Source: an uncultured Acidobacteriota bacterium
GTDB taxonomy: Bacteria > Acidobacteriota > Thermoanaerobaculia > UBA5066 > Gp7-AA6
DNA: 64,000 nt
NCBI GenBank assembly: GCA_963723535.1
Contig: CAVRRE010000016.1
Location: 12,503 to 76,502 of the forward strand
Direction: 5' to 3'
A program made the position numbers and the translations under genes. Shown in pieces: positions 51,367 to 64,000 of this stretch. Numbering within the stretch: position 1 is the first letter of the stretch; each line of letters begins with the position of its first letter. A model generated the notes under the pieces. It was not told where the DNA came from. It worked only from the letters and a program-made list of their open reading frames with translations, and did not search any database.

Positions 51367-53894
51367 CTACGGCGTCGCCGCCGTCTTCGCGAAGCTCCGG
51401 TACTCGTCGATCCCGTCCGTCGCGAAGACGACGACGCTGGGGTCGGGATCCTTCTGGAGCGCCTCCAGCAGCGGCAGGTCCTCGGCGCGATGGAGCTTGC
51501 CGAGCTTCTGGATCGCGGCCAGGCGTACGGAGCGATTGCGATCCGAGGTCAGCCGGCGCAGGTCGGCGGCGAACGCGGGGTCCTCGGGCGCCGCGCCTTC
51601 CCAGCCGGTCATGGCGGCGATGCGGACCTCCTGGACGTAACCCGGCGCCGTGTACTTCGCGAACGTCGACGCGAGCGACGGATCGCCGAGCTTTCCCAGT
51701 CCCATGAGCGCGCCGAGGCACACCGAATCCCACCAGCGCGACTCCCGTCGGAGCTGGCGCACGAGGAAGTCCTTCGCGCCCGGCGCCCGCAGCCGCCCGA
51801 GCGAGATCTCCGCGGCGGCGACGACGTCCTCGGCCTCGTCGGTCTCGACGGTGCGGCGAAGCGTGTCCGCGGCCGAGGCCTCCCCCGCGTGGCCCAGCGC
51901 GAGGGCCGCGGCTCTCCGGACGCGCGCGTCCGAGCTGCCAAGCGCCTTCGCGAGGGCGGGCTGGACCGCGGAGCCGCCGATCTTCCCGAGATCGATTGCG
52001 GCCTCCTGTTTCAAACCCCAGTGCGTCGCCGGATCCGCCAGCAGCTTCGACAGTGCGTCGACCGAGCGCGCATCCGTCGGAAAGTCGTTCGCGAGCTGGC
52101 GCGCGGCGCGCAGCTTCCCGGCGAGGTCCGCACCGGAAAGCTCCGCGAGGACCTCGGTGATGGGCCGCGTGTAGATCACCTCGCAGACGAGCCAGCCGCC
52201 CTTGTCGAACGTGACCCGCGTCGGCCGGCTCGCCGCCGGCAGCGAGGCCGTCGTCGTCCAGCCGGAGAGATCGACCCGGTGCGTCTTCGCGCCGCTCGCG
52301 TCGGCGATCTCGACTTCGACCGGAAGACGGAAGTCGTTCTCGAAGGGCAGGTCGGACTGGATCTGACGGACGGTGAGATCCACTTCCTTGCGGTCCGGCG
52401 CCCAGCGGTACGACACCTCAAACCGCGGATGGCCTCCGCCTCCCACGACCCAATCCTCGAAGAACCACGAGAGGTTTCGCCCCGACGCCCGCTCGATCGC
52501 TTCTTTCAAATCCGCCGAGTCGACGTTCGAGTACTCGTGCTTCGCGAGGTAGGCCGCGATCATCCGGTCGAAGTCGCCCTCGCCCAGGAAGTGGCGGATC
52601 ATGTGGAGGACGAGCGCGCCCTTCACGTACGTCGTCTCCTGCTGGTACATCGCGCCCGGCTCCTTGTAGCGGAGGTACTCCATCGGCCGCACGCTGCCCG
52701 TCGTCCGCACGTAGTCGACGTAGTCGTTGAGGTACGCCCAGCGCTGGTAGGTGAGGTCGCCCTCGCCGTGGGCCTTGCCGTTCCACATCGTGTGCCAGAA
52801 CGTGGCGAAGGACTCGTTCAGCCAGAGCGAGCCGAGCGAGCGGCAGGTCACGAGGTCCCCGAACCAGTGATGGACCAGCTCGTGCGCCACGACGTCCTCG
52901 TACGTGAAGACCGGCCAGGCGTCCTCGTAGAAGGGGAAGAGGTCGGGCGGATCGCCCGCCAGGCGCAGCTCCGACTCCGAGAAGCCCGTGGCCGTCGTCG
53001 TCTCCATCGCGCCGGCGAATTCGCGCAGCACGACCTGGTCGTACTTGTCCCACGGATAGGGGTAGCCGAACTTCGTCGAGTAGTACTCGACCATGTCGGG
53101 AGTGTTGCCGAAGACGTGGCGCGCCTTCTCCTCGGTCCCCGGTGGAGTCCAGGCCGTTAGCGGAACGGCCTTGTCGCCGACCTTCGCGTCGCGGAGCGGC
53201 ACTTTGGAAAGCTCGGCTACATCGACCGTCACGAGATAGTTGGGGATCGGCCCCTTCTGCACCCAGTGGAAGGTCCGCGTGCCGTCCGCGTTCTCGCGGG
53301 TCTCGACGAGACGCCCGTTCGCCACGGCCGTCAGTCCCTTCGGGACGGTCACGACGAATTCGATCGCGAAACGGTCGTTCGTGTCGTTATAGAGGGGAAG
53401 CCAGCCTCGGTGCAGCCCGCCCTCGCCGTAGTTCCAGGCCTGGGGCAGGAGCTTTCCGCTCGCCGGGTAGAAGTACATCCCGGCCCGCGGCTTGACCGAG
53501 TAGGTGATCGCGACCGTCGCCGACTCGCCGATGCGGACGGGCGGGTCGAGCGCGATGTCGAGCTTGAAGTCCTGGGCGTTCGTCGTGAACTTCTGCGGCC
53601 GACTCGTGCGTTCGCCCGCGGCGGCGCGCTCGACCTTCGTGACGCGAGGTCCGCGGCGTCGAGCGAGAGCGTCGCGAGGGAATCACGGAGCGCCTGGAAG
53701 GTGATCGTCGCGGTTCCCGCGATCGTCTCCTTCGGCATGTCGAACCCGAGCTCCGCCTTGTAGGCCTCGATGTGGAAGGACCGCTCGCGCACCGGCCGCT
53801 CGGGGCCCTCGGGCAGACGGTGGCCAAAGGCGACCTGCGCGGTAGCGGCGAGCGGACAGGCCAAGAGCGCCAGGGCGGCGAAAAGCCGTTTCAT
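51367..53894 (-). CDS. M1 aminopeptidase with C-terminal HEAT repeats, frameshifted
   Basis: Signal peptide; GAMET, HELVHHW (HEXXH), WLNESFA, YVKG; HEAT repeats. Confidence 0.9.
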
Positions 53895-53963
53895 TTCTCC
53901 TCCGTGAAGCGTGAAAGCCCGGGAATTCTATCGCCCGCCGGGCTCCTCTCATAGGATCCGCGC

Positions 53964-54582
53964 ATGCGCCGACTCGCCATGCTCGCCGCCATCCTCGGAA
54001 TCGCTTCGGCCGTTTCCGCCTCCCCCGAGTACGAGGCCGTCGAGGACCAGTCCAACATCCACTTCTCGGTGCCACTCATGGCGGTCTCCAGGGTCTCGGG
54101 CAAGTTCATGAAGTACGACGTCGAGCTGTGGGCCGGCGACAAGCCCGACCTCTCACGCGCCACGCGCAAAAGCCGTCATCGAGATCGCGAGCATCGATAC
54201 GGGCAACGACTCCTGGGACACGAAGCTGCGCGCGCCGGCGTGGTTCGACGCCGCGAAGTACCCGAAGATCGAGTTCGTGAGCTCCCGGGTGCGGAGGGTG
54301 GGCGACCGCTGGGAAGCCGACGGCAAGCTCACCCTGCACGGCGTCACGAAGGAGATCACGCTGCCCTTCAAGTTCGAGGGGCGCTTCGAGGGTCCGAGCC
54401 CCGACGAGCACATCGGGATCCATGCGACCTTCAAGTTCGACCGGCGGGACTACGGCATGGCCTGGGCGGACAACGCGGAAGCGAAAGCCGTCGGCCACAT
54501 GGTGACCGTCGAGATCACGATTCTCGCGAAGCGCGTCGCGAGGCCGGCGAAAAAGAAGAACTACGAGATCGCTAAAAAGTGA
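53964..54582 (+). CDS. YceI family protein, frameshift near 54165
   Basis: SNIHFSV, SIDTGN, FDAAKYPKIEF, GKLTLHGVTKE, DRRDYG. Confidence 0.88.
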
Positions 54583-57227
54583 CCCGGAGACTCCCGCGGA
54601 AGGCCCGGGGGCCGAGCAGCTCGTAGGGATCATTGAAAAGGTCGGCGGGCACAAACGGCGTCTCCCCCGCAGCGTCGTAGAGACCGACGGACAGCTCGCG
54701 AGCCAGGACCGTGCGGCTGTCGAGCAGGTTGAAGCACGCGAACTGCGGCGTCACCGTGACCTCCGGGCCGATCCGAAGGTCTTCGAAAGCTGCAGATCGA
54801 CCTCATAGACGCTCGGCGTTCGGTAACGTGTCGGGTGACCCGATCTGGATCTGGTAAGTCGAGTCGAAAGGGTCGTAAGTCCACAGCTCGACGAAATACA
54901 GCGTCGGGAACCCCTGCCGGCCGAAGACGTTCGCACTGGCCACGATCCCGAAAGGAAGCTCGACCATTCCGCTGACGTTGAACTGCCAGTTCGCGTTGAG
55001 GGAGCCCGCATACCCGCCGCTGGCGTTCGTGCCGGGCGTCTCGTCGTTCGGATCGATGATCGCGCCGGGGCCGATGTGCTGCTCCCATCGTTCTAGGCGA
55101 AGCTCACGCGCGCCATCCAGCCATCCGAGAAGGACTTGATCAGCTGGAACTCGACGCCGTCGTAGGTCTCGCTGGCGTCGGGGCGGTTCTGGAGCAGGTG
55201 CCCTCGCACGGGTCAGGGCAGTCCATGAGTCCGTAGTAGGGCTCGTCGAACTCGAGCACGAACCCGTCACCGCTCGACGGCAGTCCCCGTCGCGTTGCCG
55301 AAATACCGCTAGCTCGCGCGGGTCGTCCCGATCATCGGAGTGATCGAGGCTGCGGGTCTCGGTGGGTGTACGCGAGGGAGCCCGATGAGGCCGAGCGTGA
55401 ACTGTCGCTCGATACCGACGATGATCTCGTCCGTCATCGGCGGCTCGAGGCTCCTCGAGACCTGATTGATCGGCACGAAGGAGGCCGGGTTCGCCGGGTC
55501 CACGAAGCATCCCGTGGGTTGCGAAAGGTCGATGTCGGCCGGTTCGACGCGGCCGTTGCCGTTGGCGTCGTCCCAGACGTAGACCGAGCTCCGCGATGTC
55601 CGGAAACGCATTGATCGCAATATCGTCGCAATGTCCAGCTGGTCTGTGAATCGTGCGTACGAGGCTCTCAACAGAGTGCGGTTCTCGCCGAGAGCGTAGG
55701 TCGCCCCCACCCGCGGCTGGACCATTCGCCACGTGACGGGAAAGCCCGTATCGCCGGAGTACAGCACGGCCGGAAGAAGTCGGAAAAATCGGGTTGGCCG
55801 GAACCGCCGAAGGGAGGTTTTCCCTTGCTGATAGTCGAACCGGGCTCCGAGATTGACCGTCAGGTTGCCGGCCTGGATCGTGTCCCCAGGAAGACATCGT
55901 AGAGGTTCGCTCGGAGTAGCGACGTCCTGCCGGCGCGTGATGCCGGCTCGACCTCGCCGTCCACTGCTCGCCAGCGGACCCAGTAGCCAACCGAGCTCTC
56001 CCGTGGCCAGCTTTGAGGTCGAATCCGTGCCGGAGCCTGCCGGTGACTCTCGAAGCTGTGGCGCCAGACTCGCATCTCGTCGATCGGCCTGCTCGTCGAC
56101 CCCGACGGGAGGTCCGTCGACGAGGCCGGCACGTAGGAGAGTAGAACGACCCGAAGAGCTGGGCGAGAGACGCCGAGTCCTCGCCGGAAGACGCCCGGAC
56201 GAAGTTGTTCAGCTGGATTCCACGGACTGATCGATCGGTGAATCCGAGGAAGTCCGGTCGAAATTGGTGTACGCGAGGTCAGCTTTGCCGTGGATGGGAC
56301 GGGCGTTGAGCTTGGCATTCCAGATGCTCCAACGGTCTTCTCGAGGTTCTCGACCGAGCGGTTCACGAAGGGCTGACCCAGGTAGTCGTATTGTGCGCGA
56401 AGGCCCCCAGAGCCAGACCGTCTTTCCAGGGCGGACCGCCCGCCTCGACCCGTATCCCAACCGGCGCCGCCGGTGTAGAGCCCGGGCCGAGCCCAGAGCT
56501 CGTTGGTGCCGCGCCGGGTCACGAGGTTGACAGTCACGCCGGGAGTCGCGATCGAAAGGTCGGAGCCGCCGGTCGTCACCTCGATGTCGCTGAGCGCATC
56601 GAAGTCGAAGAAGATCGGAGATGATGCCCCCCAGACTGATCGCGACGCCATCGAGGTTGTAGCTGGTCTGTTCCGGGGGGGCGCCCTTCCCGGTGACGCT
56701 GGGCTGACCCTGGCTGACGCTTCCCACGTTCATGCCGCTGACCAGCACTCCGGGAACCTGCCGCAGGACGGCCCACGGGTCCCGTGTCGTGGGGATGTCT
56801 TCGAGCTCCTTTCGGCCATACGTCGCGCCCGTCTCGATCTCGCGATTGTCCAGGCGGGCCGCGTCGCCGGTCACCTCGACCGCTTCCTCGACTCCCGAGA
56901 CCGGCATGATGAACGAGAGAACCACGTTGGCGAGAGCGACGGTCACGTCCGCGCGAACCGTCTCGAATCCCGTCAACTCCAGGACGACGGAGTAGTCGCC
57001 GGGCGAGAGGCTCAGGAAATGAAAGTCACCCGTTCCGTCGGTGGTCGCGCGTTGGGCGGCGCCCGGACCGGTCAGCGTGACCGCCGCGCCGAGCGAGAGA
57101 GCTCCCCTGGGTGTCGCGAGCGGTGCCGTAGATATTGCCGGTCGGTGACGGAACCTGGGCCGAGGCCCCCGCCGTCACGAAGCAACAGCGCCGACAGACC
57201 CATCGCGGAAACCCGCGCGGATTTCAC
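54572..57227 (-). pseudogene. TonB-dependent receptor with N-terminal carboxypeptidase-regulatory-like domain; heavily disrupted
   Basis: TGNIYG, RDPWAVLRQVPGV, EVTTGGSD, VTRRGTN, QPRVGATY, YFVEL, C-terminal GSLRVTF*; many frameshifts and apparent deletions. Confidence 0.75.
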
Positions 57228-57314
57228 TTTTGTCTCCAGCCAGTCTATAGCCGGGCGCGAACGCCGGTGACCGGCCCGGAGGGCCGGCCACCGCTTCGAT
57301 CGAGAAACCGCGTC

Positions 57315-59324
57315 TCACTCACCGCCGGTCGTGGTCTTGAAGACCGACGATTGCGTGGACGCATAGAGGATGTTCGGGTCGACCGGATCGAGCGCCAGAC
57401 CGACGACACCCGGATTGTCGAGGCCCAGGTTGACCGGCAGCCAGGTTTCGGCGCCGTCCGTGCTCTTGAACACGCCCTCACCCTCCGTGCCCGCGTACAG
57501 CACGTCGTGGTTCCGGGAGTGGACCTGCACGCCGGCCGTGCGCGAGATCGCAAAGTAGGCATCGGGATCGGAGGGATCGAACGAAGGCAGCCCGTTGCTC
57601 TTCTGTGCCCAGGTCGAGCCGCCGTCGAAGCTCTTGAGCACTCCCTGGAAAATCGTACCGGCGTACGCGATCTGGGGGTCGACCGGATCGACCGTCACGC
57701 TGAACGCGGGCGTCTCGTAGACATTGACCCAGCTCGCGCCGGCATCCTGCGAACGCCAGAGGCCGCTGTTGCGGTCCGCGAGGTAGACGGTCGTGTGGTT
57801 GTGCGGGTCGACCGTGATCCCGCGGCCGCTCAAGTCCAGGAACTTGCCGGGAGGGGCATGCGGGGCACGATCGATGCGCGTGAACGTTTCGCCGAAGTCG
57901 GTGCTCTTCCAGACGCCGTTGGTGAGCAGAGCAAAGCCGCCGCCCAGGGTCGCGACATACACGGAATGGTCCACGGGGTCGACGGCGATTCCGGTGGTGT
58001 AGGTCGTGCTCGACCCGAACAGGCGGCGTTCCCAGGTCTTGCCGTGGTCCTCAGACTTGAAGAGGCCGCCTCCGACGAAGGAGCTCGCATAGACGCGCCG
58101 GGGTTCTTGCGGATCGAATGCCACGCCGCGGGGGGAGCGCGAGAGGAAGCCTCTGGTTCCGCCGTCCTTCCAGGTGCGGCCGCCGTCCTCGGTCACGATC
58201 AGGCCGCCGTCGTTTGTGGTGAGAAAGACGCGCTCGTGGTCGGAAGGATCGATCACGATGGCATGCCCGTCCTGGCAGGCGCAGCGCTTCAAGGGATCCC
58301 AGCCGATTCGGCGCCACTTGCGATCGTCGGCGTCGACAGTCCGCCGGCCGTTCGCCGGTCCGGCGAGCTGGAAGGCTCCATCCACGTTGGTCCCGAGATA
58401 GACCGCGCCGGCGCTGTCGACGCTGAGGGTGAGTCCCTGGCTTTGCGTCACGCCGGTGTTTCTCCACGTCGCACCCCCGTCCTCGCTCACCGACACGCCG
58501 CCCGACGCGGTGCCGGCGTAGAGCCGGTGGCCGCTCTTGGCGAGCGAGAAGACCACGCCGACCGCGGGCGACCCGACGGGCGCGAATGAGACGCCGGCGT
58601 CGGTGCTCTTGTAGACGCCGTTGCCGTTGGATCCCGCATAGACGACGTTGCCGTCATCCGGATCGACGAGGATTCCCCAGACCGTCGCGTCGATGTCGAG
58701 CGGGGTCCAGCTGGCGCCGCCGTCGGTCGAACGGAACGCTCCGTCTCCGTTTGTTCCGGCGAACAACAGATCCGAATCGAAAGGGCTGATTGCGAAGGAA
58801 AAGATCAGGGCCGAACCCAATCCCTCCGAGGCCCCTTCCCAGGTCTCCCCGCCATCAATGGACTTCTCCACGCCGACGAACGTCGAATAGAGGACGTTCG
58901 GGTTCGCGGGATCCATGGCCATGACCAGACCCCCGCCGCCCGCCTGGAAGTTCCAGGTCTCACCGCCGTCGGTCGTCTTGGCGCCTCCCGCATAGACGAC
59001 GTTCGGATCGTTCGGATCCATGACCATCGACGGCACCCCCCCGTCGTAGACGGCAACGAAGTGGGCGCCGCCGTCCGTGCTCTTCAGAAGACCGCCTGCC
59101 AGGCTGCCGATGTAGATCGTGCCCGACCGCGCGTGTGCCGCGATCGCCGCCGGGATGGCGCCCGGGGCCGGGCCGACCGACTTCCAGCCCTTATGAGGAC
59201 CGGCGTCACTGGCATTGACCGCTGCGATCACGGCCATCGGCCCGATCAGGGCGCCGAGGGCCAGTGCGAGACACATCCGCCGAGCCGTCCTGACCGACCG
59301 GTTTGCGAACCGAGTGGAATCCAT
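57315..59324 (-). CDS. Secreted BNR/Asp-box double beta-propeller protein
   Basis: RBS GGGAG; signal peptide; more than 10 KSTDGGxxW repeats; intact frame. Confidence 0.88.
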   Translation of the reverse strand: MDSTRFANRSVRTARRMCLALALGALIGPMAVIAAVNASDAGPHKGWKSVGPAPGAIPAAIAAHARSGTIYIGSLAGGLLKSTDGGAHFVAVYDGGVPSMVMDPNDPNVVYAGGAKTTDGGETWNFQAGGGGLVMAMDPANPNVLYSTFVGVEKSIDGGETWEGASEGLGSALIFSFAISPFDSDLLFAGTNGDGAFRSTDGGASWTPLDIDATVWGILVDPDDGNVVYAGSNGNGVYKSTDAGVSFAPVGSPAVGVVFSLAKSGHRLYAGTASGGVSVSEDGGATWRNTGVTQSQGLTLSVDSAGAVYLGTNVDGAFQLAGPANGRRTVDADDRKWRRIGWDPLKRCACQDGHAIVIDPSDHERVFLTTNDGGLIVTEDGGRTWKDGGTRGFLSRSPRGVAFDPQEPRRVYASSFVGGGLFKSEDHGKTWERRLFGSSTTYTTGIAVDPVDHSVYVATLGGGFALLTNGVWKSTDFGETFTRIDRAPHAPPGKFLDLSGRGITVDPHNHTTVYLADRNSGLWRSQDAGASWVNVYETPAFSVTVDPVDPQIAYAGTIFQGVLKSFDGGSTWAQKSNGLPSFDPSDPDAYFAISRTAGVQVHSRNHDVLYAGTEGEGVFKSTDGAETWLPVNLGLDNPGVVGLALDPVDPNILYASTQSSVFKTTTGGE

Positions 59325-59378
59325 GGTGATTCTCCCTTTCTTCAATGGCTCGATCCTGGTCGGACGGACGCGGCGAGG

Positions 59379-59407
59379 TCCTCGTCGATTCCTCAGAAAT
59401 CCCTCAA
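59379..59407. promoter_or_regulatory. Three 11-bp-phased heptamer repeats in a divergent promoter
   Basis: TCCTCGT (59379), TCCTCAG (59390), CCCTCAA (59401); -10-like TAGAAT at 59420-59425 (+) and CAGGAT at 59353-59358 (-). Confidence 0.55.
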
Positions 59408-59442
59408 AAGGCCACGCGCTAGAATCCGCACACGGCTCATTG

Positions 59443-62058
59443 ATGACACTCCGACCCGGGTCGCGGCTCGGCCCCTACGAAATCCTCGATCCGCTCGGTG
59501 CGGGAGGAATGGGCGAGGTCTACCGGGCGCGCGACACCCGCCTCCACCGCGAGCTCGCGATCAAGGTCCTGCCGGCGTCGATCGCCAGGGACGCCGACTT
59601 CCTGGGCCGCTTTCAGTCCGAGGCTCGCGCCGCCTCCGCCTTGAACCATCCCAACATCGTCACCATCCACGACATCGGGTCGGCCGATGGCGTCTCCTAC
59701 ATCGCCATGGAGCTCGTCGATGGAAAGAACCTGCGCGAGCTCGTCGGCGGTGGGCCGCCGCCGCTGAAGAAAACCCTTCAAATCGCGGCCCAGGCGGCCG
59801 AGGGCCTGGCCGCCGCCCACGCGCGTGGAATCGTCCACCGCGATCTCAAGCCCGAGAATCTGATGGTCACCCGAGACGGCGTCGTCAAGATCCTCGACTT
59901 CGGCCTCGCCAAGTCGTCACCCCTCTACGCGGGGGCGGGAGAACAAACCGGCTCGTACGAGGCTGTCCCGACACGGCCCGGAAGCGTGCTCGGAACGGTC
60001 GGATACATGTCGCCCGAGCAGGCCACCGGGCGATCGCTGGATTTTCGTTCCGACCAGTTCGCTCTCGGGACGATCCTCTACGAGATGCTGACGGGCAAGC
60101 GCGCCTGGAAGAGAAACTCCGCGGCCGAAACTCTGACGGCGATCATCCGCGAGGACCCGCAGCCTTCGATCGCGACCGCCGCTCCGGGCACGCCCACGGC
60201 GCTGCGCTGGATCGTCGACCGCTGCCTCGCCAAAGAGCCGGACGAGCGTTACGGCTCGACGCGAGACCTCGCCCGTGACCTGACGACGCTCAAGGATCAC
60301 TTGAGCGAGATCAGCGGCGTCGATGTCCATGCCGACGGGCGCCGGCGATCGAGCCGCGTCCGGCGCGGCGTTCTCATCGGAGGTCTCAGCGCCGCGGCGT
60401 TGGGAGCCGGCATTCTGCTCGCGCCTCTGCTCCGAGGCAAAGAGCCGCCGCCGCCACTGCCCAACTGGACCCAGGTGGGTTTCCGTCGCGGCGTCGTCTG
60501 GTCGGGCCGCTTTGCTCCGGATGGCCAGACGATCGTCTACAGCGCCGCCTGGGACGGCGATCCGGTGCGCCTGTTCTCGACGCGTCCGGGATCGACCGAC
60601 ACGCGCACGCTCGATCTCCCCCCGGGGAAACTCCTGTCGATCTCGTCGAAGAGCGAGCTCGCCTTCGTGCGCAACCAGACTTTCATGACCCTCCTCCTGC
60701 AGCCGGGCATCCTCGTCCGGGCCGGGCTGGAGGGAGGCATCGGTCGAGACCTGCTCGAACACGTTCAGGCGGCGGACTGGTCTCCCGACGGAACGCAGCT
60801 CGCCGTTGCCCGGAACTTCGAGGGCAAAGTCAGACTGGAATACCCGCTCGGCAAGGCCCTCTATGAAACCCGCTCGCCGATCAGCGACGTTCGGATTTCC
60901 CGGGACGGAACCTGGATCGCCTTCCTCGAGCGGGTGGAGTCCGGAGTGGTGGTGGCGGCCATCCGGGTTTCCGACGGCTCACGACGCGTTCTGACCGAGG
61001 GCTGGTTTACGGCCGCGGGGCTCGCCTGGTCCGCGGACGGACGCGAGATCTGGTTTACCCCCCAGAAGCAGGTTCGGGATTCCAGTCCTCCTCTCCTGGC
61101 CGTGAGCCTCTCCGGAAAGCAGAGAGAGGTCGTCCGGGCTCCGGGGCAGCTGCGTCTCTATGACATCGCCCCCGACGGGCGTCTGCTGCTCGCGCGGTGG
61201 GACTTACAGGTCGGCGTCCGGGGTTTCTCAACCTCCACGGGTCATGAGCGCGAGTTTTCCGCAACGGACGACAGCATGCTCTCCGACCTCTCGAGCGACG
61301 GCCGCACGGTTCTCCTGTATGACCGACACGCACTCGTCCTCCGGGCGACGGACGGCTCGCCTCCGTTGCGTCTGGGCGAAGGCTACGACGGCGCACGCCT
61401 GTCGCCCGACGGGAAATCGGTGCTCGCCGTCCCGCGGGAGGGGCCCCGCTACCCGGTTCTCATTCCCGTGGGAGCCGGAGAAGTGCGGCCGATCGAGACC
61501 GAAACCGAGTGCGAGGGCGTGGAGTGGTTTCCGGACGGAAAGCGGATCCTTTGCAAGATCCCAAACCCGAATGGTCCGTTTCGCTTGTTCATCATCGAGG
61601 TCGCGTCCGGAAAGGTCACGGCAGTCAAGATCGCCGAGGACGCCGCCAGGAGCTTCGACGAGGGAGCGTTCCAGGCCGAGTCGGCAACGGTTTCGCCGGA
61701 TGGGGCCTACCTGGCGGGCGTCGGCGGCGGCGGGGACATCCTGATCCTGCCGCTGGCGGGCGGGGAGGCACGTCGAATCGCCGGCACGCTGACAGGCCTC
61801 GACGGTCTGGCGCGCCCCGTCGGCTGGACGTCGGACGGCCGACATCTCTTCATCCACCACGTCGGCGACCTGCCGGACAAGGCGCAGAAGCTCGAGATCG
61901 CCACGGGGCGATTGGAGCCCTGGAGAGACCTCACGCTGGAGGATCCGGCCGGTCTCCTCCGGATCAACCCCGTGAGAGTCGCGCCTGACGGGCGCTCCTG
62001 GGCCTACAGCTACATCCGGGTTCTCTCGAACCTCTACGTCGTCGACGGGCTGAAGTAA
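59443..62058 (+). CDS. Hanks-type Ser/Thr kinase with TM and TolB-like beta-propeller
   Basis: [25 protein letters not shown]; TM; repeated WSPDG/SPDG blades. Confidence 0.95.
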
Positions 62059-62122
62059 GAGACGCGAAGGCGCCTCCCCCGGGGCGACGGCGCTCCCTTG
62101 TAGAATTCTCAGAGTTCCGTCC

Positions 62123-62749
62123 ATGCGACTCGACCTGGGACCCGTCACGCTCGATACCGATCGCCACCAGGTATTTCGCGACGGTAAGCCCGCACATCTC
62201 TCGACCAAGGCCTTTCAACTGCTCGAGCTGCTGGTCGAGAGCCGGCCTCGCGCACTCTCGAAAGACGAGCTCCAGAAGGCGCTCTGGCCGGACACGTTCG
62301 TGTCTGACACGAGCCTGACCACGCTCGTCAACGAGCTCCGCACGCTGCTTTCCGAGACCGCACGGAAGCCCCGGTTCATCCGCACCGTACATGGCTTCGG
62401 CTACGCCTTCGAAGGCGAGGCCCGCCCGGCGCCTCCCTCGGGCTGCCGCCTGGTCTGGGGCGCACACGACATCTTTCTCGAGGCGGGAGAGAACATCCTC
62501 GGGCGCGATCCCGGAACTCGCGGGTCCATTCCGGACGCGTCGATCTCCCGACGCCATGCGCGGATCACGGTCCGCGACGGCCTCGCGACCCTCGAGGACC
62601 TCGAGAGCAAGAACGGAACCTTCGTGAATGAGGTGCGCATCGCCGCACCGACGCCTCTCTCCGACGGAGACCCGGTCCGGCTCGGCCTCGTGAACCTCGT
62701 TTTCCGCGGACCTCCCGGCGGCCTCACGACTACCAAGACGGTCCGATAG
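62123..62749 (+). CDS. OmpR-type winged-helix + FHA transcriptional regulator
   Basis: LWPDTFVSD..L, FIRTVHGFGY (Trans_reg_C); GRD, SRRHA, SKNGTFVN (FHA); no receiver domain. Confidence 0.92.
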   Translation: MRLDLGPVTLDTDRHQVFRDGKPAHLSTKAFQLLELLVESRPRALSKDELQKALWPDTFVSDTSLTTLVNELRTLLSETARKPRFIRTVHGFGYAFEGEARPAPPSGCRLVWGAHDIFLEAGENILGRDPGTRGSIPDASISRRHARITVRDGLATLEDLESKNGTFVNEVRIAAPTPLSDGDPVRLGLVNLVFRGPPGGLTTTKTVR

Positions 62750-62776
62750 CGATCGGGCCCGAGTCGGCCGGATGCT

Positions 62777-64000
62777 CTACCGGAACGTCAGCGTCGCCCC
62801 CGCCGAGTAGGCGTGGAACTCCGGGGCGTACATCGACTGCACCGTCGCCGGCGAAACCTTGAACGTGCCGGCCATGTTGGCCCGGATGCGGTGCTTGAAG
62901 GTGTACTCCCCGACCGGCAGCCACTCGAAGAAGAAGTTGGCCCCCGAGTCGCGCGTCTCCTCGTACCAGAAGATCCCCAGGTCCCACTTGTAGCGGGACA
63001 GGACGTTCTGGGGCTCGGCGCCGGCCGGCCGCGGGTCGCGCAGGTGGACGTACTCGGCGGCGTGCTTCGTGCGGAGCGAGATCTGGACTTCGATCTCGTC
63101 GCCGGCGCGCACGACGGTTCCTTCCGCGAGCGGCTTCAGAACGAAGTCTGCGGCCGTCGATTCGCGGAGGAAGTACTTTCGGGAGACCGCGAAGAAATCG
63201 CCCCGGTCCTCCTCCGGGAGCTTCTCGGTCGAGAAGTGCCAGGTTGCCGAGGCGAAGGCGAGTCCCTTTCCGGTCTTGGACACTCCGATCGCGGAATCGC
63301 GCTTCGGATCGATCTTCTCGCCCGCCACGACGACCTGGTTCCGCTTGCCCGTATAGCGGTCCGGCTCGAAGACGAACGTCGTCTTCTGGCTCCCGACTTC
63401 GACCGTCACGTCCTCCCGCACGGCGAGCGCGCCTTCCTTCTTGAGATACCAGACGACGGCGTAGATGACGTCGGCCGTTGCGCGCGTCGATTTCCACTGG
63501 TTCATCTTCTTGTTCAGAAAGAGCCACTGGACGAGGCCGTGGCGGCGGGAATCCGTGGGGTCGAGCTCGGCGAGGACGCGCAGCGCGAAGGCCTGCGTCT
63601 CGATCGTGTCGTTGTACCAGAGCCAGGAGCGGTCCTCCGGAGCGAAGTAGGTTCCCAGATCCGGATCGGTCTTCGCCGCGTCCATCACCGAGTCCCAGAC
63701 GAGCTTCGCATCCTTCGGCCGGCCCATGCGCTTCAGCGTCAGCGTGAGCTGGCCCTTGAGGTACGGAGAGTGGGCCTTCCAGTGAGCGAAGGAGTAGTCG
63801 AGGAGCTTCTTTCGGTACGCCGCGTCGAAGGCGCCGGCGTACCAGGACTCGTCGGGATAGGACGAGAGGACGTAGTTGACGTACGTCACGAATTCGCAGG
63901 TGCCCTTGTGCGCCATGCAGGACTCGAGGTCCCGCTTGAGATCAGCGCCCGCGTAGCGGAAGGCCTTCTCGACCATGTCCTTCGGAACGTCGACGCCGAA
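62777..64000 (-). CDS. Bacterial alpha-2-macroglobulin, C-terminal part (5' end outside window)
   Basis: IETQA, WKSTRAT, LRDPRPAGAEP, EETRD, APATVQSMYAPE-type C-terminus. Confidence 0.85.
   Translation of the reverse strand, partial: FGVDVPKDMVEKAFRYAGADLKRDLESCMAHKGTCEFVTYVNYVLSSYPDESWYAGAFDAAYRKKLLDYSFAHWKAHSPYLKGQLTLTLKRMGRPKDAKLVWDSVMDAAKTDPDLGTYFAPEDRSWLWYNDTIETQAFALRVLAELDPTDSRRHGLVQWLFLNKKMNQWKSTRATADVIYAVVWYLKKEGALAVREDVTVEVGSQKTTFVFEPDRYTGKRNQVVVAGEKIDPKRDSAIGVSKTGKGLAFASATWHFSTEKLPEEDRGDFFAVSRKYFLRESTAADFVLKPLAEGTVVRAGDEIEVQISLRTKHAAEYVHLRDPRPAGAEPQNVLSRYKWDLGIFWYEETRDSGANFFFEWLPVGEYTFKHRIRANMAGTFKVSPATVQSMYAPEFHAYSAGATLTFR

Follow-up and report, generated by a model that had tools for sequence, protein, structure and literature searches.

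We analysed a 64,000-nucleotide stretch of DNA from an uncultured Acidobacteriota bacterium (GenBank assembly GCA_963723535.1, contig CAVRRE010000016.1), referred to below as the window. It is part of contig C16 of a metagenome-assembled genome (MAG) of 4.03 Mb in 18 contigs, with an estimated completeness of 66% and a GC content of 68%; its relatives are MAGs labelled Acidobacteriota, mostly Thermoanaerobaculia. The subject is a candidate phosphothreonine (pThr) signalling pair at positions 57315-62749, consisting of a receptor Ser/Thr kinase and a regulator, here called REG, in which a winged helix-turn-helix (wHTH) DNA-binding domain is joined to an FHA domain. Three intact genes occupy this region. 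A secreted BNR/Asp-box protein with Sortilin-Vps10-like repeats is encoded on the minus strand (57315-59324, 669 aa from the ATG at 59324; Pfam and NCBIfam). On the plus strand follow the kinase (59443-62058, 871 aa; Pfam, alignment, hydropathy and AlphaFold model) and, after a 64-bp gap, REG (62123-62749, 208 aa; Pfam, alignment and model). A gene for a TonB-dependent-receptor-like outer-membrane protein (OMP; about 54575-57200, minus strand) adjoins the BNR gene from behind on the same strand and has a broken reading frame in the assembly. Between the BNR and kinase genes lie three tandem 11-bp direct repeats (59379-59411, plus strand), which form a candidate REG operator.

REG begins directly with its wHTH domain. 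Pfam matched Trans_reg_C (PF00486) to residues 21-96 (62183-62410; E 1.2e-18) and FHA (PF00498) to residues 125-188 (62495-62686; E 1.7e-18), and gave neither a receiver (Response_reg) nor a BTAD match at E<=0.01. This confirmed the OmpR-type DNA-binding domain fused to FHA without receiver or BTAD that an earlier note on this DNA had described. The FHA signature G127-R128, S142-R143-x-H145 and N164-G165 was invariant in a 17-sequence alignment; judged from these positions, the domain has all pThr-binding signature residues. A structural model of REG (predicted local distance difference test, pLDDT, 85.8) showed two compact domains joined by a linker of about 10 residues and a disordered tail at residues 202-208. 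The FHA domain superposed on that of M. tuberculosis FhaA (3poa) with a TM-score of 0.85 and a root-mean-square deviation (rmsd) of 1.6 Å, and the fold also matched GarA, OdhI, EmbR and Bdellovibrio DgcB. Among the structures compared, EmbR is the only one solved with a wHTH-FHA pair.

The C-terminal tail of REG (62708-62746) is rich in threonine and conserved, with T203 being Thr in 109 of 115 close homologues. We counted tail motifs in 87 usable of the 88 REG copies from the 80 related loci described below; one copy reading through for more than 60 aa was dropped. A [ST]-T-x-[ST] pattern was present within 18 residues past the invariant R195 in 70 of the 87 copies and the shorter T-x-[ST] in 85, and the central Thr lay 7-9 residues beyond R195 in 63 of the 70 motif-bearing copies. 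Control windows inside REG proteins contained the pattern in 7 of 3335 cases. The near-invariant [ST]-T-x-[ST] tail is a new feature of these proteins.

REG belongs to a well-populated, unnamed family. Among 5.8 billion proteins, 4293 matches were found (E<=1e-3, 114-364 aa). Both domains were present in 114 of the best 120 of these matches (about 208-238 aa), while the other six were shorter (169-190 aa) and carried Trans_reg_C only. Where sources name these homologues at all, the names are 'hypothetical', 'wHTH protein' or 'FHA domain', and no description of a BTAD-less Trans_reg_C+FHA regulator or of Thermoanaerobaculia kinases was found in the open-access literature searched. The ESM Atlas contained 30 clusters with Trans_reg_C and FHA together, Acidobacteriota being the commonest source. 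A full-length match (E<=1e-25) occurred in 32 of 401 sampled genomes of the phylum, one of which (G029) is unpublished, and within this sample all four other genomes of the window's family gave a REG match. The genome of the window itself has six full-length paralogues. Tandem copies were also observed: at C7:136052-140802 of the same genome (G000) two wHTH-FHA paralogues are directly followed by a kinase-propeller gene in the order REG, REG, kinase, and double REGs occur likewise in L034, L045, L049, L051, L060, L062, L069 and L074.

The kinase open reading frame (ORF) formally opens at 59215. We place the start at 59443, because 29 related kinases align from this ATG and the DNA upstream of it is conserved as non-coding. 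Pfam matched Pkinase to residues 12-273 (domain at 59476-60261; E 4.7e-44), with weak WD40, PD40 and Gmad1 propeller repeats after it. K41, H132-R133-D134, N139, D152-F153-G154, the activation-loop T185 and P191-E192 are present here and invariant in a 30-sequence alignment, by which the protein is a Hanks-type RD kinase with an intact catalytic signature. Hydropathy gave one hydrophobic segment (residues 309-330; 60367-60432), with RRRSSRVRR on its N-terminal side. A single transmembrane (TM) helix with a positive N-terminal flank places the kinase domain in the cytoplasm and the C-terminal ~540 aa in the periplasm. The propeller ectodomain (60433-62055) is accordingly predicted from hydropathy and flanking charges to be periplasmic and not cytoplasmic, as had been proposed. 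In an AlphaFold model built from a 33-row alignment (pLDDT 90.2, predicted TM-score 0.87) the sensor has an all-beta fold of about 43 strands. Foldseek matched it best to double propellers (2ymu, Aip1 1nr0 and tricorn 1k32), at TM-scores of only about 0.3. The intact membrane kinase with a propeller, as claimed earlier, is therefore retained, whereas the strand number and the double-propeller matches speak against a single TolB-like propeller. The 4.03-Mb partial genome contains 71 kinase-domain blocks, 19 of which have this sensor type behind them. In this same genome (G000), two head-to-tail arrays of about ten kinase-propeller paralogues each leave no space for other genes (C6:11786-35300 and C4:345246-376325), and several of the paralogues in these arrays give split matches.

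The association of kinase and REG genes was examined in the best 80 of 410 stretches from a one-genome-per-species scan, each classed by its nearest kinase domain. REG preceded the kinase on the same strand with a gap of at most 400 bp in 33 of the 80 loci. The kinase preceded REG on the same strand in 3 loci, the two genes were divergent in 4 and convergent in 4, and in 22 the kinase lay elsewhere within 7 kb. The total of 66 of 80 loci with a kinase within 7 kb overstates the support, as orthologues and loci from the same MAGs are not independent. No kinase was found in 14 loci, and only four of these (L017, L022, L068 and L081) had full 7-kb flanks on both sides. From 71 blocks in 4.03 Mb, the chance of a same-strand kinase start within 400 bp downstream is about 0.35%. 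The adjacency holds over REG subfamilies of 45-60% identity, and of the six REG paralogues in the window's own genome, four have a kinase at a distance of about 2 kb or less. Chance neighbourhood does not account for the pair, and wHTH-FHA/kinase pairing recurs across soil Acidobacteriota; the coupling of the two genes put forward earlier is borne out by these counts. The kinase-REG order of the window is a minority arrangement.

The divergent BNR protein matched Sortilin-Vps10 (PF15902; E 5.1e-30) and BNR (PF02012; E 1.3e-14) in Pfam and NF045728 in NCBIfam (200.5 bits vs a 175-bit cut-off). Its N-terminus carries a hydrophobic, signal-peptide-like segment after RR, and a GGGAG-type ribosome-binding site lies at 59330-59336. 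The repeats, this segment and the strand agree with the secreted Asp-box protein divergent from the kinase that had been described. NF045728 bears the name F510_1955 glycosylhydrolase, the sole evidence for the hydrolytic function once assigned to the cassette, a function we do not adopt. The OMP gene has several frame changes: in its best frame, protein-like sequence repeatedly gives way to out-of-frame stretches, and in-frame stops occur, as seen from stop-to-stop ORFs and single-frame translation. Intact OMP orthologues of L015, L016 and L019 align along 57108-54575 (tblastn) and carry CarboxypepD_reg (PF13620) and OMP_b-brl_4 (PF25183) in Pfam; the gene in the window gave Plug only below threshold (E 9.6e-4; 20.1 bits vs a cut-off of 23.9). 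Of the divergent TonB receptor in the earlier note, a receptor-like gene behind BNR on the kinase-divergent strand stands and an intact reading frame does not.

The three repeats in the BNR/kinase intergenic region read TCCTCGTCGAT, TCCTCAGAAAT and CCCTCAAAAGG and form the core of a conserved 34-bp element (59377-59410). The -10-like hexamer TAGAAT (59420-59425, plus strand) follows 8 bp past the repeats and 17 nt ahead of the kinase ATG, and the TAGAAT-to-ATG spacing is likewise 17 nt at REG. Pho boxes, too, are tandem direct repeats with an 11-bp period at the -35 position. In all six aligned orthologues the intergenic region is strongly conserved with the three repeats kept, and the GCTAGAATCC block around TAGAAT is invariant. 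A related 34-bp element lies directly upstream of the REG ATG in orthologues, with TAGAAT inside its first unit; the corresponding copy of the window is degenerate (62093-62122, plus strand, TAGAAT at 62101-62106) and fills part of the kinase-REG gap directly before the REG ATG. A position weight matrix (PWM) built from 13 instances of the element scored 54.0 at the kinase-proximal site, 18.9 at the REG-proximal copy and 18.2 at the next site of the 4.03-Mb genome. The kinase-proximal element is the only high-scoring site in the genome and is unique to this locus. Degenerate REG-proximal copies go with a kinase immediately ahead of REG (the window, and L042 with 20.4); most other orthologues score 34-60, the exception being L024 (21.9), whose REG does not follow a kinase. 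For the window and L042 the degeneration mostly fits transcription of REG from the kinase promoter.

Copies of the element also lie beside BNR-type genes in unrelated surroundings. It lies between a Sortilin/BNR gene and M28 peptidases in L027, and in G002 a weaker copy stands between a Vgb-lyase-like gene and a 1222-aa BNR/Sortilin gene, with the REG orthologue standing alone. The OMP gene is downstream of, or divergent from, the element-bearing region in all six loci that have an OMP gene. These elements beside BNR and OMP genes, together with the intergenic repeats, lend indirect support to the proposed control of divergent secreted genes; the regulation itself we infer from them.

An 11-bp repeat periodicity upstream of REG is a family-wide and new observation. 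In 43 de-replicated 60-nt REG-upstream regions the mean best 9-mer self-match was 6.21 at a shift of 11, compared with 4.05-5.00 at the other shifts from 7 to 16 and 4.58 in shuffles, and no such peak appeared in 55 kinase-upstream controls. REG subfamilies that differ in recognition helix also differ in repeat unit, for instance SDTSLTTLVNE with TCCTCA, EASLAGLVAE with TTTCNTG and ERSLARLVEV with GTTCGG, in a purely descriptive comparison with descent as a confounder. In other subfamilies (upstream regions L025-L090), many REG genes share a conserved (A/G)GTC(C/T)T motif some 45-50 nt ahead of the ATG, with a TAGAAT/TAAGAT/TAGGAT box lying about 20 nt upstream of this motif. From these positions the repeats of those subfamilies may lie in a transcribed leader. 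Three contigs of one related MAG, G003 (C10:94207, C11:91311 and C58:12674; L091, L096 and L100) end with an identical 34-bp element and the first REG codons. The assembly probably forked there, at a REG gene that is repeated or varies between strains, and the three ends were not used as evidence.

Orthologous neighbourhoods showed that REG, OMP, BNR and kinase gene types travel together in shuffled orders. The order of the window, BNR(-), kinase(+), REG(+) and alpha-2-macroglobulin (A2M)(-), is shared by L011, L012, L013 and L042. L015 has REG, OMP, BNR(-) and kinase; L016 has REG, OMP and kinase; and L019 has kinase, OMP(-), REG and A2M. In L020 the order is kinase, OMP(-), DinB(-), REG, kinase, and in L024 it is kinase, OMP(-), DinB(-), REG, YceI, BNR(-), an extracytoplasmic function (ECF) sigma factor and kinase. 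L022 and L017 have an M1 peptidase gene(-), REG and A2M(-) with no genes between. Flanked by the same backbone genes, the set of kinase, BNR and OMP is found in some loci and missing from others. The GC content at third codon positions (GC3) is 0.82, 0.81 and 0.84 for kinase, REG and BNR and 0.91 for the two flanking genes. Against a genome-wide ORF set the three genes fall at the 50th-61st percentile, near the median, although these percentiles are rough, the set being contaminated by shadow ORFs of the 68% GC genome. Codon usage that is less GC-extreme, as the earlier note had it, thus holds relative to the immediate flanks and not relative to the genome-wide set. The accessory nature of the cassette is partly supported by its absence from L022 and L017 and by a GC3 below that of the flanks. 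A horizontal-transfer island was considered and rejected: the 2-kb GC profile is flat (0.65-0.68 over the locus vs 0.64-0.74 in the window) and reveals no island.

In L024 (10687-12655) an ECF sigma factor gene (PF07638) lies directly upstream of a kinase of the same family, beside the BNR gene. ECF sigma factors may thus replace wHTH-FHA regulators as partners of these kinases in some relatives.

The nearest known counterpart is PknH-EmbR of M. tuberculosis, where EmbR is a SARP-type protein of wHTH, BTAD and FHA (PDB 2FEZ/2FF4). Like REG, EmbR combines a winged helix of the OmpR type at its N-terminus with FHA at its C-terminus and is encoded beside a membrane Hanks-type kinase with an extracytoplasmic sensor; its FHA domain matches that of REG by sequence (E 3.5e-7) and by fold. 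EmbR has 388 aa and a BTAD domain, whereas REG has 208 aa and none by Pfam. Because of the BTAD domain, superposition of both domains together gave an rmsd of 18 Å, and the domain arrangement differs. REG is further set apart by its conserved C-terminal Thr tail, multi-copy paralogues and diderm Acidobacteriota host, and the kinase has a large propeller ectodomain and not the PknH sensor fold. Without BTAD, REG may by analogy be EmbR-like in its working and stands outside the EmbR/SARP family. A passage of PMC4601284 describes that FHA-dependent phosphorylation of EmbR raises its promoter binding.

OmpR/PhoB response regulators have the same type of DNA-binding domain as REG (best PDB match e.g. 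1p2f, E 1.1e-11) and differ from it by their receiver and histidine kinase; the phospho-signal is read by an N-terminal receiver in these proteins and, as proposed, by the C-terminal FHA domain in REG. With GarA/OdhI and Bdellovibrio DgcB, REG shares an FHA domain and a short, Thr-rich, disordered tail. In GarA/OdhI and DgcB, phospho-acceptor tails act as switches. The tail of these proteins is N-terminal and long and their output is enzyme inhibition or a GGDEF domain, whereas the tail of REG is C-terminal, 7-9 residues from FHA, and its output is a DNA-binding domain. Fold matches of the FHA domain were 6i2p, 4qcj, 6hbz and 6hc0/6hc1, the last two titled 'tail complex' and 'phosphorylated N-terminal peptide'. 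Recruitment of GarA to the PknB activation loop is given in the reference list of PMC6213207. A passage of that paper describes PknD of M. tuberculosis as a Hanks kinase with one TM helix and a beta-propeller on the extracytoplasmic side. The propeller of PknD is single and six-bladed, whereas the ~540-aa sensor here has about 43 strands, double-propeller matches and WD40/PD40-type Pfam repeats.

Taken together, we assign a probability of about 0.6 to the reading that the locus is an EmbR-like, BTAD-less phospho-Thr sensor/regulator module which would regulate its own expression and control the BNR/outer-membrane cassette. Within this kinase-rich Thermoanaerobaculia genome it is one among several paralogous pairs. 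The scheme below, with its phosphorylation, binding and direction of regulation, is one that we infer from the genes and their arrangement. A periplasmic ligand would activate the kinase, leading to autophosphorylation of the activation-loop threonines, and the FHA domain of REG would dock on the kinase once this is phosphorylated, in the manner of EmbR with PknH and GarA with PknB. REG would then be phosphorylated, most likely at the tail threonine, and FHA-pThr contacts between REG molecules could align the winged helices in tandem on the three 11-bp repeats. Contact between molecules seems likelier than contact within one, because the tail is so close to the last FHA strand. Finally, since the repeats occupy the -35 place of the kinase-REG promoter and face the divergent BNR/OMP operon, REG would probably autoregulate the kinase-REG pair and co-regulate the operon of BNR and the outer-membrane receptor.

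Several findings weigh against this reading. A generic scan of 57000-63000 gave no sigma-70 consensus promoter, the conservation of the element among close orthologues could partly be due to shared ancestry, the 80 loci are not independent, and the OMP gene, presumed to be a target, has its frame broken in this assembly. Kinase and REG genes are also not always together: the genome has 71 kinase domains and six REGs, two of which have no kinase within 18 kb, and therefore one-to-one pairing is not general. The orthologues L022 and L017 have REG without a kinase within 7 kb, and the tandem kinase arrays on C6 and C4 are without REG. All this would suit a REG that acts as a shared hub, its FHA domain reading pThr on many of about 70 kinases or substrates, with adjacency reflecting co-inheritance in a kinase-dense genome; EmbR, according to a passage of PMC4601284, is phosphorylated by several kinases in vitro. 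Co-inheritance of this kind fits poorly, however, with a same-strand kinase start within 400 bp downstream of REG in 33 of 80 loci, where roughly 0.35% would be expected, and with tight adjacency across subfamilies of 45-60% identity, and we regard a shared hub as unlikely.

The position of the repeats raises the question of the sign of regulation, and we do not adopt the activation named in the earlier note. L015 has 58 bp inserted between the repeats and the kinase TAGAAT, which speaks against a kinase promoter of fixed activator geometry, and in orthologues the REG-upstream repeats lie between the TAGAAT box and the start codon, a repressor-like place that would suggest repression rather than activation. 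The logic could then be reversed, with unphosphorylated REG repressing at the repeats, phosphorylation or capture by the active kinase freeing the DNA, and the tail pThr folding back on the FHA domain. Self-binding phospho-acceptor tails are known in the FHA proteins GarA (Rv1827 pThr 22, 2kfu) and OdhI, as a passage of PMC4601284 describes. A tail Thr only 7-9 residues from the last FHA strand is, however, probably too near to reach its own pThr pocket. At the kinase promoter, moreover, the repeats precede TAGAAT, occupy the -35 position and look activator-like, as for PhoB-type activators, so that we consider reversed logic improbable, somewhat more so than the hub. The pair could also be a decaying remnant of a cassette that is being lost in this lineage, with no present regulatory role. 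The frame-shifted OMP, YceI and M1 peptidase genes and the degenerate REG-proximal element (18.9 vs 34-60) would agree with decay, but L042 and L024 have similarly low element scores, the frame changes may be assembly errors in a 66%-complete MAG with split kinase matches elsewhere, and in the OMP stretch the short-read contigs of relatives deviate by single-base indels. Since kinase, REG and BNR all have their full length, no catalytic or pThr-binding residue is missing, and the kinase-proximal element is intact with its score of 54, an inactive remnant is very improbable.

The usual view of bacterial Ser/Thr kinases is that they act pleiotropically and have few transcription factors as dedicated partners, EmbR being the textbook exception. 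The locus points to a populous, uncharacterised family in which a minimal regulator, made of a DNA-binding domain and a pThr reader, is genetically coupled to receptor kinases and has predictable operators. If the proposed mechanism is true, the locus would be a tractable model of dedicated kinase-to-gene wiring in diderm soil bacteria, and regulons could be assigned from sequence alone to some of the many orphan Acidobacteriota kinases. A wider and doubtful possibility is that wHTH-FHA proteins form a distinct class of 'FHA response regulators', in which a kinase, a phospho-tail factor and subfamily-specific 11-bp operators would make up modular, paralogue-insulated units, with phosphorylation-driven FHA-tail oligomerisation replacing receiver dimerisation. 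Such units, if real, would work in Acidobacteriota like histidine-kinase/response-regulator pairs.

Besides OMP, frame shifts affect the YceI gene (53964-54575; change near 54150) and, near 53640, the M1 peptidase gene at its 5' end. The frame changes cluster at 53300-57300 in three neighbouring genes, and the next 5.4 kb with BNR, kinase and REG are intact. Relatives' short-read contigs showed indels of 1-2 bp relative to the window at 55059-56495, with seven gaps in one 418-nt piece, and three pieces over 57004-57439, at the junction of the OMP 5' end and the BNR 3' end, had 1-2 gaps each. The listed pieces wholly within 57531-62730 had no 1-2 bp gaps; one X3 contig had a 3-bp insertion at 59792. 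The changes in OMP, YceI and M1 may be a local assembly error or real decay.

In a search of sequencing runs, none contained more than 0.12 of the sampled words. The short-read contigs matched to the window were 88-99% alike and are mostly relatives' DNA, and the high read depth at 59323-60273 stems from other organisms, whose kinase domain is conserved. Contigs from metatranscriptomes (X12) overlap parts of BNR, the sensor and REG and are not evidence that the locus itself is transcribed.

Beyond REG, the window ends in the C-terminal part of a very large A2M gene (62777-64000, minus strand; bMG10 E 7.4e-30). In most orthologous loci this gene encodes about 2000-2100 aa and is convergent with REG (e.g. 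L011:7650-14015 and L022:7646-13693), an orientation seen in L011, L012, L013, L017, L019 and L022. A2M is a conserved neighbour of REG and probably lies outside the system. The M1 peptidase, which has HEAT repeats, flanks the cassette on its other side. Two PP2C-type phosphatase genes lie elsewhere in the genome.

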